64,000 nucleotides of DNA from Candidatus Nanoarchaeia archaeon (GTDB lineage Archaea; Nanobdellota; Nanobdellia; SCGC-AAA011-G17; DATDVL01). This document shows positions 16,726-50,539 of this stretch, piece after piece. Under the pieces are notes generated by a model, which ran no database searches, was not told the origin of the DNA, and saw nothing but the letters and a program-made list of their open reading frames with translations. Within the stretch, counting starts at the first letter, position 1. Each line of letters opens with the position of its first letter. Position numbers and translations under genes: made by a program. The stretch is taken from assembly GCA_035289925.1 (NCBI GenBank), contig DATDVR010000005.1, positions 112,916 through 176,915 of the forward strand. Reading direction: 5' to 3'.

Positions 16726-17736
16726 ATGAAAAATAGTCCTAAAGATATCGGAAAGAAAAACGTACTAAGAGATTCGGAGAATCTGGATCCTAAAGGTTTG
16801 AAAGAAGTTCATGGATACGACTTCAATAATGGGGTAAATTATGATAAAATGTTTGAAGCTTACGCATCAACAGGATTTCAAGCAACCCACTTAAATGAAG
16901 CCATTCAATTGATTAAAAAAATGAGAGAGGAAAAATGCACTATCTTTTTAGGATACACTTCAAGCATGATTTCATCTGGCTTAAGAGATGTTTTCAGATA
17001 TTTAGTTGAACATAAATTTGTTGATGTTGTTGTAACAACTGCAGGTGGAATTGAAGAAGACATAATTAAATGCATAAAACCATTTTTACTTGGAAAGTTT
17101 TCAATGTCTGGTGAATATCTAAGAGAGAAAGGTATCAACAGGGCTGGAAATGTCTTGATTCCTAATTCCAGATACTGCGCTTTTGAAGATTTTTTTGTTC
17201 CAATTTTAAAAGAGATTGTTGAAGAACAGAAGAAGACTGGAAAAGTTTATGCAACAAATGACTTAATATGGAAACTGGGAGATAAAATAAACAATAAAGA
17301 GTCAATCTATTACTGGGCAAACAAAAACAAGATACCTGTTTTCTGTCCTGCAATAACTGATGGTTCTATTGGGGACATGATGTACTTCTTTTCCTATGAC
17401 AATCCAGAATTAAAAATTGATTCTGTTGCCGACATAAGAAAATTAAACGACATTGCAATAACTGCCAAGAAAACTGGACTGATTATATTAGGTTCTGGTG
17501 TAGTTAAGCACCACATCTTGAATGCAAACATGATGAGGAATGGAGCAGATTATACAGTTTATGTGAATACTGCTGAAGAATATGACGGAAGCGATGCTGG
17601 GGCTAGACCAGATGAAGCTGTTTCATGGGGGAAGATACTTCCAGATGCTAGAGCTGTAAAAGTACATGCAGATGCAACTTTAGTATTTCCTATAATAGTT
17701 GCTGAAACTTTTGCTAAGGAAAAAAGCCTAGGGTAG
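16726..17736 (+). CDS. dys: deoxyhypusine synthase
   Basis: DHS blocks [66 protein letters not shown]. Confidence 0.9.
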
Positions 17737-17810
17737 GAATTGCACCTACGACCTCAGGTTAATTCGCAAATGATACGAAACCCGTGCTCCACTAATTAAG
17801 CTACCTAGGC
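17725..17810 (-). tRNA. tRNA-Thr (anticodon CGU) with 13-nt canonical intron (37/38)
   Basis: Acceptor GCCTAGG/CCTAGGC, D-stem GCTT/GAGC, anticodon stem CGGGT/ACCTG. Loop TTCGTA then intron TCATTTGCGAATT (17761..17773); TTCG pairs with intron CGAA, flanked by 3-nt bulges (a BHB-like fold). T-loop TGCAATT with G55, as in the other Thr tRNA. Confidence 0.65.
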
Positions 17811-29724: not shown

Positions 29725-30838
29725 TCAAGGATAGCTAATATTCAGAAGCTTAAGATATTTGTTTAATTCAGCGGTTGAGATTTCACCTGGAAAGTAATCA
29801 TTAAGCAGTTTTATTACTTTCTTTCTTAGACTAAAGGTGTTTGCATTTTGAGCATAACCGTTCCAGCCGCAGAAAGAACTGTATATCTTATCATAAGTAA
29901 TTCTTCTAGAATCGTAAAGCTCCTTGTATTTTTCAATTCTTTTAGACAATTTCCTCTTATTTATCTTTCTTAGAAGCTTGTGGTAATAAAAAATCCTAAA
30001 ACCTAAAAAATTAATGCCTTTATTCAAATTTATTATTTTAGATTTACTAGGATGCAGTTCCAATTTCAAGTTTTCTTTTAAAAAATCATCAATCGCCCCC
30101 CCCCCTTATTTTTAAAGTTTCTTTAGAAGAATCTAAAATGATAAAATCATCAACATACCTAATATAATATTCTGCTTTTAAATTATGTTTTACGAATTGG
30201 TCTAGTTCATTAAGATAAATATTAGCAAAAAATTGTGATGTCAAATTACCTAATGGCATTCCTATTCCTTTTACTTTAGAATTGAAATTATTTAAGATCT
30301 TGCTTATAAGCCAAATAACTTTTTCATCTTTAATCTTGTTCTTTAAAACATTCAATAAAACTTCATGTGAAACTTCGTCAAAATAATGCTTAATATCAGC
30401 TTTAAAAACATAGCATTTTTTCCTGTTATTTTTACTTACTTTTCTCTTGAAATAATCAAATCTATTCAAGGCCTTTAAGTTTCCTTTGCCTTTTTGATTG
30501 GCGTAGGAATCATGAATGAAAGATTTACTTAAGATAGGTTCTAAAATATTGCACAAAGCGTGATGAACTATTCTGTCTCTAAAATCTGATTTAGAAATTT
30601 TTCTGGTTTTTGGATCTCTTAATATAAATGTTCTTAAAGGTAAAGGATTGTAAGTGTGAAACAATAATTCTAATCTTAGTTCTTCCAAATTTTTATCCAA
30701 ATCCTTTTCAAATTCCAATACATAAAGCTTTTTAGATTTTCTTTTCTTAGCTCTCTTATAAGCCATCAAAAGATTAGTGTAGCTGCAAATCTGCTTCCAC
30801 AAGTTATTGTAAGTCTTCATTGTTAAAAGCCATAGCAT
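29725..30838 (-). CDS. DGR reverse transcriptase, split by a frameshift in a C10/G10 homopolymer (ORFs 30089..30838 + 29725..30069)
   Basis: RT domains 1-7: …RDRIVHHAL…, FKADIKHYFDEV, DGR-diagnostic motif 4 LGNLTSQ (SQ rather than SP), YVDD box YIRYVDDFII, thumb …GINFLGFRIF…. The two ORFs abut at the run of 10 C (30096..30105). Confidence 0.85.
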
Positions 30839-30846
30839 TTGTTAGG

Positions 30847-30932
30847 TTATTCCAACATAACGCCCATTGTTGTTGAAGTTGTTGTCGCCATTAAGACCGT
30901 TGTTGTCATCGTTACCAACATAAGACAAGCGC
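30847..30932 (-). repeat. DGR template repeat (TR)
   Basis: 86-bp repeat 9 bp upstream of the RT start. Its minus-strand sense is AAC-codon-rich (…GNDDNNGLNGDNNFNNNGRY…). It aligns with VR 31273..31358 with 17 mismatches, all at TR adenines. Confidence 0.9.
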
Positions 30933-31135
30933 AAGCAAAATAGCTCTCTTACCTTCTATATCACTGTTGCTTCACATTTTCGACTAGTTACTAAGTGTTG
31001 CAACTGAATTTTATGGCTACTCTATGCCCTAGTAAAAGAGCGTGTAGCCTAACAATTCTTAACTTCATAACAATAAGTTACTCATTAGTTAAGCTATGCT
31101 AAGGCAAAATAACGATAGAATCTAATCTTATAAAA

Positions 31136-31972
31136 TTATTGGTAAAGCTTTATTATTGTCTTTTCAAAATCTTCTCTTGTTGAATCTGCAACGAAAGGTT
31201 TTGAAACTCTTAAAATCTCTTCTAAAGTTGGTGTCTTTATTTCCTGTGGAGATTTTTGCGCGCCGACTGCACGTACCCCAACAAAACGCCCATTGCCGCT
31301 GAAGTAGTTGACGCCATCAAGACCGCCGAAGTCAACGCCACCAACATAAGACAAGCGCCCTAAATTCTTTTGTTTTATATCTTTAGCTTCATTAAACCTA
31401 TGCCAGCTTCCTAGTGTATTAACTCTATAAGTTTCCGTTGCTTTCTTGAAATAAGCTGAAGCCCTTTCAACGCTGCCAGATTTTGCTAAAACTATGTCAT
31501 TTTTTATCCATTCTTCTTGTGTAAGCCTTTCTGACTTTGCTTTTTGCGCATTGCTTAAAGGCATTATAACTGCATAATTTCTTGGAAGCTTTGAATCTCC
31601 ATTTTTTCTTAAATCTTTTATAGAAACTACTGCCCTTTCATCTGATTCTTCAAGAACGGCTTTAAGCTCGTCATCTGTGACTTCAACAAAACCATAATCT
31701 AGTTGGTTTTTTCTTTTTGCCCTTATTGTATCTGGAGTGAATACCTTTGTTCCATGCTCGATTACTGCAAGCTTACTTCCTTTTGAAGCATATTCGGCTC
31801 CATTTGGAATATACCAAGTATTGAATGGCAGTTCATTATTAATTCTTGCCTGAAGTATCTCTGGAGAAGTAAATATTGTCTTAAGCTCTCTTTGAGCTGT
31901 TTCTAAAGCAACAGCTAAAACTGAATTATAAACTGGCAATAGTTCTCTTTTCTCTAGAGTTGAGTTTAGCAT
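31136..31972 (-). CDS. DGR target (variable) protein with C-terminal FGE/C-type-lectin-like fold
   Basis: C-terminal RVNTLGSW…(VR: LSYVGGVDFGGLDGVNYFSGNGRFVGVRAV) resembles FGE-sulfatase/CLec-fold DGR targets (RVxRGGSW…GFRxV). The VR sits at aa about 199-227 of 278. Confidence 0.85.
   Translation of the reverse strand: MLNSTLEKRELLPVYNSVLAVALETAQRELKTIFTSPEILQARINNELPFNTWYIPNGAEYASKGSKLAVIEHGTKVFTPDTIRAKRKNQLDYGFVEVTDDELKAVLEESDERAVVSIKDLRKNGDSKLPRNYAVIMPLSNAQKAKSERLTQEEWIKNDIVLAKSGSVERASAYFKKATETYRVNTLGSWHRFNEAKDIKQKNLGRLSYVGGVDFGGLDGVNYFSGNGRFVGVRAVGAQKSPQEIKTPTLEEILRVSKPFVADSTREDFEKTIIKLYQ
31273..31358 (-). repeat. DGR variable repeat (VR) inside the target gene
   Basis: 86 bp, 69/86 identical to the TR; all 17 differences are plus-strand T in the TR (an A in the coding sense) against C, A or G in the VR. 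Confidence 0.9.
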
Positions 31973-32150: not shown

Positions 32151-32366
32151 ATGGTTACTACAATTCAAATAGGGGAAAGGACAATGGAACAACTTAAAAC
32201 AATTAAAAAGACTCAAGGACTTAAATCATATGAAGAGGTAATACAGGAACTTTTGCTTAAATCAAGGACTAAAAAATCTTTTTTTGGATTTATGGGTAAA
32301 TCAGGAAATCTACCAAAAATGCTTAAAGAACTACAGGAAGAAAGGAGAGCAAGTGACAGATTTTAA
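32151..32366 (+). CDS. VapB-like antitoxin
   Basis: 71-aa protein immediately upstream of, and overlapping, a PIN-domain gene. Confidence 0.5.
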   Translation: MVTTIQIGERTMEQLKTIKKTQGLKSYEEVIQELLLKSRTKKSFFGFMGKSGNLPKMLKELQEERRASDRF

Positions 32367-32718
32367 TTTTATTGACAGTTCTATTTGGTTAGCCTACTTA
32401 GAAGGTGAAGAAAATGTAGTTCCTTATATAGACAATGCTACAGGAGTTGCCACTTCAGTTATAACATTATTTGAAGTAGCTAAAAAATATAAAAAGTTAA
32501 ACTATCCAATTCAAAAAATAAAAGCTTGCATTTCTTTAATTAAGGAAAGGAGTGTCTTATTCAATGTAGATGAAGATGTAGCGACTAATGCGATCAATTT
32601 TTCTAATTCCTTAGCTATGGCAGATGCTTTAATCTATGCAACTTCTCAACTAAATAAGTTTAAATTAATCACAAAAGACAACGATTTTAGAGGCATGAAT
32701 AATGTTTTGGTAATTTAG
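32353..32718 (+). CDS. VapC-like PIN-domain toxin
   Basis: PIN residues FIDSSIW…LEGE…ADALIYATS…LITKDNDF. Probable GTG start at 32353 within ORF 32284..32718. Confidence 0.65.
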   Translation: MTDFNFIDSSIWLAYLEGEENVVPYIDNATGVATSVITLFEVAKKYKKLNYPIQKIKACISLIKERSVLFNVDEDVATNAINFSNSLAMADALIYATSQLNKFKLITKDNDFRGMNNVLVI

Positions 32719-34434
32719 TTACTTCTTGCCACGCTGCGAGTTATATATTTTTTCAATAAGATTAATGTCGCTTATATCATCTAAAGAACGATCAAAACGC
32801 ACCCTTAAAAATCTTGGGAAGCGCATGGCATAACCCGAGGAATATGAAGGACTTTTCTGGATTTCTTCAAATGCAACTTCAACAACCAATGAAGGATGCA
32901 ATGTAACTTCCTTGCTTTTCTCTGAGATAATTAAAGGCTTAAGCTCTTTTGTTATCTGCTCGAATGTGACTTCATTTTCTCCTTTCTCTTTTACTCCTGT
33001 GCTTACCTTACCAACTTCAACTAGATTTCCATCAGAATCTTTGCAGGCTACAGTATAAGATGAAAGCCATTTTGCTCTTTTGCCTTCACCCCATTCTGCT
33101 TTGACTATTACTAAATCCAAAGTTTCCAAAACTTCTTTTAATTTTGCCATGAAGCCAACATATCTTCCTGGCTTGTAAGAAGCTGTGATAGACTTGAACA
33201 TAATACCCTCGTGGCCTGCTTTCAAAGCGCTCTTGTAAAAAGTTTCAACCTCTTTTGCAGAATCTGTAATCAAGTTTTTAGCCAAGACTATTTTCTTGTC
33301 AATCGGCTTTACAATTTTTTCCAAGATTTTTCTTCTTTCTAATAATTGTTCATTGAACAAACTTTTACCATTCAAAAATAATACATCAAAAACATTAACC
33401 TCAACAGGGAATTTTTTACCCATTTCTTCAATGTCGTATTTTCTTCTAATTCTCTGAGAAATACTCTGGAATGGCAAGTATTTGCCTGTTTTTTTATCAT
33501 AGCCAACAACTTCTGAATCTAATATTACTGAATCTGCCTTTACTTGGGATTTTATTATTGGAACCAATTCTGGAAACTGCTTTGTGACATCTTCCATTCT
33601 TCTTGTTAATAATTTAATCTCATTACCTTTCTTGTGAATCTGCATCCTGAAGCCATCGTACTTGAATTCTATTTCTGCTGGCTTTCCAACAATTTCGAAT
33701 CCTTCTTCTATGTTTTTAGCTAGAATAGCAAGCATCAAGTTTATTGGCTTGCCTGGCTCTAGTTTGACTTCATGTAATTTTTTTTGCTTTGCTAGTTTGG
33801 CAACTAAGCCGTAATCTGTCAATAAATCATAAGCATTTTCTACTTCTTCAACTGAAATGTCAAAAGCTTTTGAGATTGAATCTCGAACAATTCCAGCTGC
33901 AATTCCAATCCTTAACTCTTCCAGTACCGTTCCAATGATAAATTTGGCTTCATCTGGAGAAGCATTTGAAAGCAATTCTGAAACTAACTGAACTTTTCTG
34001 TTAACTGTGCCTTCTCCTTCCAAAGTTGAAAGCTTCCTGATATTGTTGAAGACTTTTGAGACTGTAATCTCCTGCGAGAACAATGTAGATTGCTTTTTCT
34101 TTGTAATCAAGATTGAAGCTACTTTTCCCAAGTCTCCTTCCTTGTTGAATAATTTTTCAATCTCGTTTATCGAAGAACCTGTAACAGATGAAATGGCCTT
34201 CATTACTAATCTTGATGAGAACCCTATCTTGCTATCATCCCATAAAGGAAAGACCTTGCCTTGAACTAGATAAACAATTTTCTCTAAATCTTCGTCTGCA
34301 GACTTCAATAAAGAAGCCAAAATATCTGTTTTTTCCAGCCTCTTTGTAGTCTTTCCCAGGCTCTTATAGAAATTGACTAAAATTGAATATTGCATGGAAA
34401 TGTTTAAATAATTGGCTAATTTAAATCTTTTCAT
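32719..34434 (-). CDS. lig: ATP-dependent DNA ligase
   Basis: Adenylation motif KYDGFRMQIH, EGIMFK, OB-fold C-terminus. Confidence 0.9.
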   Translation of the reverse strand: MKRFKLANYLNISMQYSILVNFYKSLGKTTKRLEKTDILASLLKSADEDLEKIVYLVQGKVFPLWDDSKIGFSSRLVMKAISSVTGSSINEIEKLFNKEGDLGKVASILITKKKQSTLFSQEITVSKVFNNIRKLSTLEGEGTVNRKVQLVSELLSNASPDEAKFIIGTVLEELRIGIAAGIVRDSISKAFDISVEEVENAYDLLTDYGLVAKLAKQKKLHEVKLEPGKPINLMLAILAKNIEEGFEIVGKPAEIEFKYDGFRMQIHKKGNEIKLLTRRMEDVTKQFPELVPIIKSQVKADSVILDSEVVGYDKKTGKYLPFQSISQRIRRKYDIEEMGKKFPVEVNVFDVLFLNGKSLFNEQLLERRKILEKIVKPIDKKIVLAKNLITDSAKEVETFYKSALKAGHEGIMFKSITASYKPGRYVGFMAKLKEVLETLDLVIVKAEWGEGKRAKWLSSYTVACKDSDGNLVEVGKVSTGVKEKGENEVTFEQITKELKPLIISEKSKEVTLHPSLVVEVAFEEIQKSPSYSSGYAMRFPRFLRVRFDRSLDDISDINLIEKIYNSQRGKK

Positions 34435-50426: not shown

Positions 50427-50539
50427 GGGCCTGTAATTTAACCAGGATCAGAATGCGAGGCTTCGGTTTGGCCTTTGGCTAGATTTAATGCCTATCTTGG
50501 AGAAACCTTGATATCCAGGTTCAAATCCTGGCAGGCTCA
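50427..50539 (+). tRNA. tRNA-Arg (anticodon UCG) with ~38-nt intron at 37/38
   Basis: Acceptor GGGCCTG/CAGGCTC (one G·U), D-stem ATTT/GAAT, anticodon stem CGAGG/CCTTG, loop CTTCGG, T-arm CCAGG-TTCAAAT-CCTGG. Exon CTTC pairs with intron GGAG next to 3-nt bulges (BHB-like); intron about 50467..50504. Confidence 0.55.

Follow-up and report, generated by a model that had tools for sequence, protein, structure and literature searches.

A nanoarchaeal diversity-generating retroelement with its reverse transcriptase out of frame at a ten-guanine tract that may act as a reversible switch

Prokaryotes have, to our knowledge, no natural means of hypermutating chosen proteins other than diversity-generating retroelements (DGRs). 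Among DPANN and CPR organisms, whose genomes are reduced, these elements occur with unusual frequency, and one of them lies in the 64-kb stretch of nanoarchaeal DNA analysed here (the window). Its reverse transcriptase (RT) gene is broken by a frameshift inside a run of ten guanines, and the question raised by this locus is whether such an element is dead, is read through in spite of the break, or is held at rest by a tract whose length can change.

The repeat pair at the heart of the element was examined by ungapped alignment of the template repeat (TR, 30847..30932, minus strand) with the variable repeat (VR, 31273..31358, minus strand), which are identical at 69 of 86 positions. When the mismatches were tabulated by class, all 17 fell on TR adenines (A>G 10, A>T 6, A>C 1), as the initial annotation had maintained; given a TR composition of 27 A in 86 nt, the probability of this restriction is 2.1e-11. 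The edge of the repeat is the last column (30847 A against 31273 C), where similarity ends. The codons affected in the TR include the AAC type that had been singled out, but also AAT, GAC, GAT and TAT. The TR encodes RLSYVGNDDNNGLNGDNNFNNNGRYVGIT, and the VR, which does lie in frame within a same-strand ORF of 278 aa (codons 205-233 of 278), encodes GRLSYVGGVDFGGLDGVNYFSGNGRFVGV. A search of the window for further VR copies or remote targets, with the TR adenines replaced by N, recovered the TR and the VR only, with 0 matches expected. These observations were further strengthened by a 90%-identical relative (L002) carrying a different VR, in which 13 of 13 mismatches again fall on TR adenines, and by a paralogous cassette in which the count is likewise 13/13. 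By a strict test, a VR was found within the locus in 39 of 80 relatives, usually some 400-600 nt upstream of the TR. Among the assemblies, the six lineage-1 copies have 0 VR differences and the seven lineage-2 copies also 0, so that the identical lineage-1 VRs give no sign of ongoing diversification in this population.

The target gene (31136..31972, minus strand) encodes an AvpA-family variable protein with a C-type lectin fold. A Pfam search of the target returned no match. A profile built from 44 homologues matches PDB 5IOO (AvpA) over its full length (E=7e-86), and the AF2 model (pLDDT 91.6) has 5ioo_A as its best Foldseek match (E=7e-13, TM 0.82), with the VR sitting on the lectin-fold C-terminal part. 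An IMH-like element spans 31250..31280 (minus strand) and consists of TGGGGT (31275-31280) followed by the GC-rich ACGTGCAGTCGGCGCGC. The VR thus ends in TGGGGT and a GC-rich 17-mer, whereas the TR ends in the IMH* TGGAAT (30849-30854) and an AT-rich sequence, an arrangement kept both in the paralogue and in L002, where the same IMH-like sequence is present. Positions 31250-31272 are identical to the paralogous cassette at 23 of 23 sites, while the two target genes share only 42% identity. Both motifs, TGGGGT as IMH and TGGAAT as IMH*, have been described for Nanoarchaeota DGRs (PMC4372165). A hairpin or cruciform 3' of the VR was considered and rejected, as the predicted DNA fold is no better than that of shuffled sequences (z=-0.33).

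Between the target and the TR lies a structured RNA, RT-16 (Rfam RF03019; 30935..31103, minus strand), which ends 2 nt before the TR. The covariance model gives it 90.7 bits against a gathering score of 50 and is covered in full (1-158); the paralogous cassette also carries RT-16 (91.2 bits), and comparison of the two by eye reveals double changes at potentially pairing positions. RT-16 was found in 19 of 20 related DPANN DGR loci sampled, in 17 of which it is on the RT strand, ending about 100-530 nt (mostly 100-200) before the RT match. Folding of RT-16, the TR and the RT start as one RNA gave an uninformative z=-1.6. The segment joining the TR to the RT (30821..30846, minus strand) is conserved, and since the flanking coding DNA has dS of about 0.9-1.0, this conservation, as far as sequence comparison can tell, suggests constraint at the RNA level. 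The TR had been correctly placed just upstream of the RT, but the gap measures 8 nt to the first ATG (30838) and 26 nt to the MKTY start (30820), the latter being the likely true start as in homologues, rather than the 9 that had been given. An Avd gene is absent: the stretch from target to RT holds no ORF above 35 aa, and the neighbouring genes have no Avd-type Pfam match. Avd is not universal among DGRs.

The RT does contain the motifs LGNLTSQ (motif 4) and YVDD that had been recognised in it, but it is not a single ORF. A frameshift within a run of ten G (G10, read as C10 on the plus strand; 30096..30105, minus strand) cuts it into two. The N-terminal ORF of 249 aa (30089..30838, minus strand) holds the motifs through YVDD and stops at a TGA that follows the G run by 5 nt, and the C-terminal part of 123 codons (29725..30096, minus strand), in the +1 frame, holds motifs 6-7 and the thumb, 114 aa of it being callable from a TTG. 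A tract of G9 or G12 would give back an RT of 370/371 aa. The frame-repaired protein matches Pfam RVT_1 (6.9e-25) and aligns without a gap to 23 full-length homologues. Its nearest solved relative is 8ub7_A, which we take from its sequence to be the bRT of the Bordetella phage DGR, at 153.7 bits, where RTs of the group II and retron types reach 89 bits at most, in agreement with the class first proposed. An intact RT ORF is lacking here, which bears on present function and not on ancestry. The element had also been called complete and canonical; its target-TR-RT order is indeed standard for the clade, but the broken RT frame, the absent Avd and the overlooked RT-16 require these words to be qualified.

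We are virtually certain that this is a chromosomal DGR, one of the known Nanoarchaeota/DPANN type. Observations that speak to this identity are the adenine-only mismatches, the adenine-only VR of L002, the AvpA target, the RT nearest to 8ub7, the IMH/IMH* pair and RT-16. The DGRs previously described in Nanoarchaeota (DUSEL4 and SCGC AAA011-G17; Paul et al. 2015, PMC4372165; Handa et al. 2016, PMC5006420) belong to the same RT clade, with two AAA011-G17 loci (L058 and L069) among the RT relatives of the window DGR, and they share with it the AvpA target family and fold (PDB 5IOO), the IMH TGGGGT and IMH* TGGAAT, the one-strand target-TR-RT order and the presence of several DGRs per genome. 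They differ in that the window RT is frameshifted at G10, RT homopolymers and frameshifts being absent from the literature searched, and in that its target-TR intergenic region is occupied by RT-16 RNA and has no Avd-like ORF. With the DGR of Bordetella phage BPP-1 (mtd-avd-TR-brt) the element shares adenine-specific TR-to-VR information flow, a GC-rich IMH, a C-type-lectin-fold gene that carries its VR 3'-terminally, and an RT with [LI]GxLTSQ and YxDD. Unlike BPP-1, the window DGR is without Avd, sits in an archaeal host, has a TR-RT start gap of only 8-26 nt, and carries RT-16 5' of the TR in place of the 140-nt spacer 3' of the TR in BPP-1 (RT-10, PMC5737381). The first description of RT-16 (Weinberg et al. 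2017, PMC5737381) did not settle its function and linked RT-10 alone to a DGR; as in that description, the motif adjoins an RT gene, with a match here to the full model, but in both paralogues it also abuts the 5' end of a proven TR.

The frameshift is reproduced well beyond the window. The RT is out of frame in all 18 of 18 other assembled copies examined, which come from several projects and include both paralogous cassettes, and MEGAHIT, JGI, ANAN16 and Logan assemblies show the G10 again at 12 loci, 5 more of lineage 1 and 7 of lineage 2. The tract is the same in L001 and L009-L012; in L014 the run is interrupted (GGGGGTGGGG). The MAG contains a second, paralogous DGR with G10 at the same RT site (locus tags of the pair, VJB94_02105 and VJB94_03555); to regain the frame, lineage 1 would need a tract of G9 and lineage 2 one of G11. 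Both paralogues retain G10 although the flanking dS is 0.86-1.03. Compared with the paralogue, the RT downstream of the tract has a dN/dS of 0.098 (dS 1.03) and the upstream part 0.079, and the other two frames of the downstream region hold 12-20 stops; both RT halves are thus under purifying selection. The contigs, in lineage 1 as in lineage 2, are near-identical, with a single aquifer population as their probable source, so that the frameshifts could be very recent and the dN/dS values are also compatible with fresh pseudogenes.

The tract is exceptional within the window, and tracts of its kind recur within the gene family. It is the sole G/C run longer than 5 in the 64-kb window, where 0.002 runs of such length are expected; GGG makes up 9.8% of Gly codons, and the sole GGG-GGG pair among 57 Gly-Gly dipeptides is in the RT. 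Across 80 DPANN loci, which are not phylogenetically independent, 10 runs of at least G7 occur in 82.9 kb of RT sequence. All of these are G on the sense strand (p=0.002), and the RT is enriched over its flanks, where 378 kb hold 11 (p=0.0018); of the 12 runs of at least 9, every one is inside the RT or no more than 360 nt away (p=6e-7). A set of 80 phage DGR RTs yielded 1 run only, despite 50% GC. The RT tracts recur at certain sites, for the most part protein termini or parts of the alignment rich in indels, have several origins on the RT tree, and are mostly in frame in the DPANN relatives. Lengths and frame states vary among relatives: at site A, three tracts (G7, G9 and G9) preserve the frame and two (G10 and G10) break it; the G7 of L091 is also out of frame, G8 being needed there; and three more RTs with GGG(G) peptides encode them by G9, G9 and G12. 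Even at RT identities of only 71-74%, members of one clade keep their tracts in frame, which suggests that the tract as such is being maintained. Two other readings of the G runs were set aside: an origin by self-mutagenesis of the DGR (A>G), because the adenines beside the tract are untouched, and a fixed RNA priming element, because tract positions vary between RTs.

By analogy with the Bordetella phage paradigm, the RT would copy a transcript that includes RT-16, the TR and the first part of the RT's own gene, making errors at adenines, and the resulting cDNA would replace the VR at the 3' end of the AvpA-type lectin-fold gene under the direction of the TGGGGT/GC-rich IMH. With the RT out of frame at G10, most cells would have this mutagenic homing turned OFF. 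It would be ON only in the minority where one G gained or lost at replication (phase variation) restores a 370-aa RT; the same restoration during transcription or translation would be a less likely route. That the G10 tract is a selected, slippage-prone switch, now OFF, is the reading we favour over its rivals, at about even odds; under it, tract length would really vary and gate RT activity. The VR, static in all assemblies, fits the OFF state. A wider claim, that poly-G is an evolved and repeatedly acquired contingency switch making DGR hypermutation phase-variable in DPANN archaea, we advance more tentatively, as falling somewhat short of even. The retention of G10 by the paralogues, the low dN/dS downstream and the sole GGG-GGG pair lying in the RT are points in keeping with a selected tract, and the family-wide recurrence of poly-G, with its differing lengths and frame states, also speaks for a switch. 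The poly-G/C contingency loci of Campylobacter, Neisseria, Haemophilus and Helicobacter offer the nearest parallel. As in those loci, a G run of at least 7 lies in an ORF of an AT-rich small genome, its length sets the frame, ON and OFF lengths occur among relatives, and one gene class is enriched. The window locus differs from them in its archaeal host, in that no within-population length polymorphism was seen, and in that the switched gene is a mutator, the DGR RT, whereas the bacterial loci switch surface or modification genes.

A direct search was made for the ON state. Eight constructed ON proteins had no exact counterpart among 15 billion proteins, and the assembled contigs likewise contain no in-frame allele (G8, G9, G11 or G12) of either paralogue. 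The sole in-frame sequence, a protein-level (Plass) assembly that reads as G9 (P0125), was judged too weak to count as an ON allele, as it could rest on read error, and a second candidate of 328 aa (P0127) was rejected as a chimera. A pattern scan of JGI metagenome contigs for tract-length variants gave a single locus, one already in hand from the other searches, and the 90% clusters of seven in-frame tract-bearing RTs contained no length variants, only N-terminally truncated partials. Given that assemblies and clusters hold no length variants, tract-length polymorphism, the defining feature of phase variation, is not demonstrated; assemblies are consensus sequences, in which minority tract alleles are invisible. 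The missing in-frame allele, the weakness of P0125, the lack of length variants in clusters, the near-identity of the contigs and the kinship among loci in the enrichment test weigh on the side against a switch. The interrupted run of L014 and a nonsense codon in the lineage-2 target of L004 look like decay and also count against it.

The same observations bear on the reading in which both elements are recently dead DGRs, with one-base frameshifts at formerly in-frame, mutable tracts, the RTs now pseudogenes and the VR a frozen relic. All assembled copies being out of frame, the databases searched being without an in-frame allele, the VR being unchanged across samples, and the lesions of L014 and L004 would all be expected of it, and broken RTs do occur, 2 of 80 relatives being frameshifted at ordinary short A/T runs. 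Yet neither copy has a second lesion, and the 117-123 codons downstream stay open where the other frames are closed; two independent and opposite shifts (+1 G and -1 G) would both have to have struck the tract within a single genome; the diverged clade keeps its tracts in frame; and a tract slip is mechanically reversible. We therefore consider death of the elements unlikely, though a serious contender. A simpler objection, that the frameshift is an artefact of assembly or sequencing and the real tract is in frame with the RT intact, draws on the error-proneness of homopolymers and on the G9 reading of P0125, but four assembly pipelines and several sequencing projects agree on G10 at 12 further loci, and both paralogues would need errors of opposite sign, which leaves it hardly credible.

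If the break is real and the gene alive, the RT could instead be made at the RNA level, polymerase slippage or ribosomal frameshifting on the G run yielding a little full-length enzyme constitutively. The fixation of G10 in all assemblies and purifying selection on both halves would suit such recoding, as would the formally slippery heptamer G GGG GGG and the fact that slippage gives both +1 and -1 and could serve lineage 1 (-1 G) as well as lineage 2 (+1 G). Recoded genes such as those of Buchnera poly(A) tracts, dnaX, IS elements and prfB likewise have an open, selected and essential downstream frame, there also behind a homopolymer. Against this, the same-site tracts of relatives are in frame (G7, G9, G9), so that the out-of-frame state is not conserved among orthologues, unlike in true programmed frameshifts; the paralogues require opposite shifts; no stimulatory element was identified; and the tract is of G, not A/T, slippage on G/C runs being less documented than on A/T runs. 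Recoding is accordingly improbable in our view. Still more so is a two-subunit RT, made of the 249-aa N-fragment and a C-fragment re-initiated at the TTG nine codons past the tract, in which the G run would serve as a Shine-Dalgarno-like sequence. That TTG has the same position in both paralogues, poly-G could in principle pair with a CCUCC anti-SD, and gene callers do report the 104-114-aa product. But relatives encode a single polypeptide (the frameshifted L066, L084 and L091 excepted) to which the repaired protein aligns ungapped, the cut falls between motifs 5 and 6, within sequence alignable to bRT, and the nine tract-to-TTG codons are kept as protein (7/9 residues), although these are too few for a test. 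We give a split enzyme very little credence.

The orphan motif RT-16 gains a context here, as an RNA directly 5' of the TR in DPANN DGRs, and its placement implies a DGR RNA architecture unlike that of the Bordetella phage model. DGR finders that demand an intact RT ORF will miss or mis-score elements of this kind. A full-text literature search found no report linking DGR RTs to homopolymers, frameshifts or phase variation. If the reversible-switch reading is true, this would be, as far as we know and in the literature searched, the first regulator of DGR activity of such a kind, and among the first simple-sequence-repeat phase-variation systems in Archaea. A hypermutable homopolymer in the RT would then provide a simple, heritable and reversible control that caps the cost of mutagenic homing, and only a sub-population would diversify its AvpA surface lectin at any time.

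Computational alignment of the template repeat (TR, 30847-30932, minus strand) with the variable repeat (VR, 31273-31358, minus strand) bore out the initial annotation, the two matching without gaps at 69 of 86 positions and differing only at TR adenines (17 of 17 mismatches; A>G 10, A>T 6, A>C 1), for which the chance under random mismatching is 2e-11 given the 27 adenines of the TR. The similarity ends sharply at either side, the TR codons that vary are AAC, AAT, GAC, GAT and TAT, and the VR lies in the coding frame of a 278-aa target ORF (31136-31972, minus strand). The reverse transcriptase (RT) motifs LGNLTSQ and YVDD were likewise both recovered, and a pattern search with the TR adenines masked returned no VR or TR copies beyond these two in the 64 kb. 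Identification of the locus as a diversity-generating retroelement (DGR) is secure and its type is already known, the element being a member of the described kind (Paul 2015; Handa 2016).

The target protein has just two close homologues by word-based search and 162 distant ones by exhaustive HMMER search. The profile of its homologues matches PDB 5IOO (AvpA, a Nanoarchaeota DGR variable protein) over the full length (E=7e-86), and 5ioo_A is the sole significant Foldseek match of its AlphaFold model (pLDDT 91.6). The 3' ends of VR and TR, TGGGGT and TGGAAT, are the IMH and IMH* signatures described for Nanoarchaeota DGRs (PMC4372165), and after the VR stands a GC-rich 17-mer that is identical in a paralogous cassette, though the target genes are otherwise only 42% identical. 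The stretch that separates the target stop codon from the TR contains a full-length match (90.7 bits) to the Rfam structured RNA RT-16, left without function by its describers (PMC5737381). In the window and the paralogue alike, 2 nt separate the end of RT-16 from the TR. The RNA was detected in 19 of 20 sampled related loci; its placement as an RNA directly 5' of the TR appears to be new. In two related loci (L048, 2289-2424, minus strand; L031, 1698-1818, minus strand) RT-16 lies on the strand opposite the RT and farther off, suggesting a different cassette arrangement. No Avd-like accessory ORF was found at the DGR locus. The neighbouring genes (ArgRS, TrmB, VapBC and an ATP-dependent DNA ligase) and the NCBI organism name 'Candidatus Nanoarchaeia archaeon' mark this as a chromosomal DPANN locus. 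The VapB-like antitoxin and PIN-domain toxin pair (32151-32718, plus strand), directly upstream of the target gene on the opposite strand, is kept in all contigs of lineage 1 (the window cassette and its near-identical copies). Elsewhere in the window, a 113-nt tRNA detected by Rfam and missed by ARAGORN (50427-50539, plus strand) and an ARAGORN tRNA with an odd 4-nt anticodon (17725-17810, minus strand) are probably intron-containing archaeal tRNAs.

The element had been called complete; its TR, VR and RT motifs are indeed present, but the RT is split over two frames. The first ORF (30089-30838, minus strand) stops 5 nt after a run of ten G (G10, 30096-30105, minus strand), and the remaining 123 codons follow in the +1 frame down to 29725 (minus strand). 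Removal of one G yields a 370-aa RT that aligns without gaps to 23 full-length homologues and matches Pfam RVT_1. Its nearest solved structure is 8ub7_A (153.7 bits, versus at most 89 bits for group II and retron-type RTs), which we take from its sequence to be the Bordetella phage DGR RT. Thousands of RTs share 55-65% identity with the repaired RT, every named one from DPANN archaea, including SCGC AAA011-G17, reportedly the single cell of the first archaeal DGR description. Gene callers place the start of many RT ORFs upstream, beyond the TR (P0007, P0010, P0024, P0034, P0082, P0053, P0087), with N-termini such as GRLLFxGNNxNNxLNGNN..NNNGRFVGI; in many cases the TR frame is thus open and joined to the called RT. 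The clade also has another type of TR, which reads SRLNRFDNDSRFNANDRNVDNSNN.

The G10 tract is clearly non-random. No other G/C homopolymer in the window exceeds 5 nt, against an expectation of 0.002 runs as long as this one, and GGG is the rarest glycine codon (9.8%). Other G/C runs in the window end at 5 (n=13) and A/T runs at 8 (13 of exactly that length), a ceiling that suggests genome-wide avoidance of slippery runs.

Similar tracts recur across the family. In a set of 80 DPANN loci taken from GTDB species representatives (GC 36.5%), the RT genes (82.9 kb) contain 10 G runs of 7-11 nt, each of them sense-strand, versus 11 in 378 kb of flanks, and every one of the 12 runs of at least 9 nt is inside the RT or no more than 360 nt away; a comparison set of 80 DGR RTs of viral contigs, more distantly related (median GC 50%), held one C7 only. 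The tracts occur after YVDD (site A, the window's own), before GMPLGNLTSQ (site B), at single-locus positions near residue 131 (L060) and at residue 267 (L091), in the C-terminal (thumb) part, and at the N-terminus and C-terminal tail, most of these sites being indel-rich alignment columns or protein termini. In a neighbour-joining tree, site A tracts fall in two separate clades, one of them comprising three RTs that are mutually 71-74% identical and all retain the tract, and site B tracts are scattered. Tracts in relatives are mostly in frame (G7, G9, G11, G12), that of L091 (G7) being out of frame and that of L031 possibly so; in three further RTs, GGG(G) peptides are encoded by runs of G9, G9 and G12. 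Ten viral loci (L104, L108, L109, L111, L114, L115, L120, L130, L131 and L139) have G8-G11 runs 0.15-2.9 kb from a phage DGR RT and none inside it (L114 G11, L115 G10), which may represent phase-variable phage genes beside DGRs.

A second cassette (lineage 2, with its copies) encodes an RT of 86% protein identity in a different genomic neighbourhood and has its own TR/VR pair with 13 mismatches, all A-only; the two are paralogues in one MAG, since both have the NCBI locus-tag prefix VJB94_. In seven lineage-2 loci the tract is exactly G10 at the same site. By fit to the family alignment, lineage 1 requires G9 and lineage 2 G11, and the two frameshifts thus have opposite signs and are independent events. 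The paralogues have diverged to a dS of 0.86-1.03, with a dN/dS of 0.079 before the tract and 0.098 after it, where the alternative frames hold 12-20 stops; this low ratio and these stops indicate that the C-terminal part of the RT was translated over essentially the entire history of both copies. At lineage-2 locus L003, a CDC48 AAA ATPase (1-2856) with an intein bearing a LAGLIDADG domain (precomputed Pfam matches) adjoins the cassette; in L004 (JGI 3300002502) the upstream gene is PolD DP2 instead, and the target gene has a nonsense mutation, E43* (G>T), at the equivalent of L003 3029.

The VR does not differ between any assemblies of this population, as fits an OFF state, and a 90%-identical relative (L002) carries a different, A-only VR, so the DGR worked in the recent past. 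Dense differences that are not A-specific occur in the central part of both target genes (window 31504-31572 versus L001, 16 in 69 nt; L003 3136-3292 versus L005, 12 in 157 nt) between contigs otherwise 99.6-99.9% identical, with a comparable patch in the DNA ligase gene (33910-34009); the target-gene patches have the look of mosaics left by recombination or of an assembly that mixed strains.

We consider the tract probably maintained by selection, and judge the chances about even that it is a selected slippage switch. That some relatives have in-frame and others out-of-frame tract lengths resembles slipped-strand contingency loci and is unlike conserved programmed frameshifts. Length polymorphism within a population, which would prove phase variation by definition, did not show among the assembled copies: no assembled in-frame allele was found among 15 billion proteins, and the sole in-frame protein comes from Plass assembly at the level of reads. 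A serious if rather unlikely rival is therefore that both RT copies were inactivated recently, and possibly irreversibly, leaving fresh pseudogenes. Less likely than such pseudogenes are RNA-level slippage or recoding on the tract, which we hold to be improbable, and a split RT, which we regard as very improbable. An assembly or sequencing artefact is least credible, as G10 is repeated in five more lineage-1 loci (L001, L009-L012; MEGAHIT, ANAN16 and Logan assemblies) besides the seven of lineage 2. The lineage-1 tract of L014 (ENA ERZ27254752, 261-kb contig) reads GGGGGTGGGG, 10 nt, out of frame and not a pure homopolymer.

In our full-text literature searches no paper tied homopolymers, frameshifts or phase variation to DGR RTs. 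The poly-G tracts that recur on the sense strand of DGR RT genes in DPANN archaea, with the two copies here each out of frame by a single G, appear to be new.
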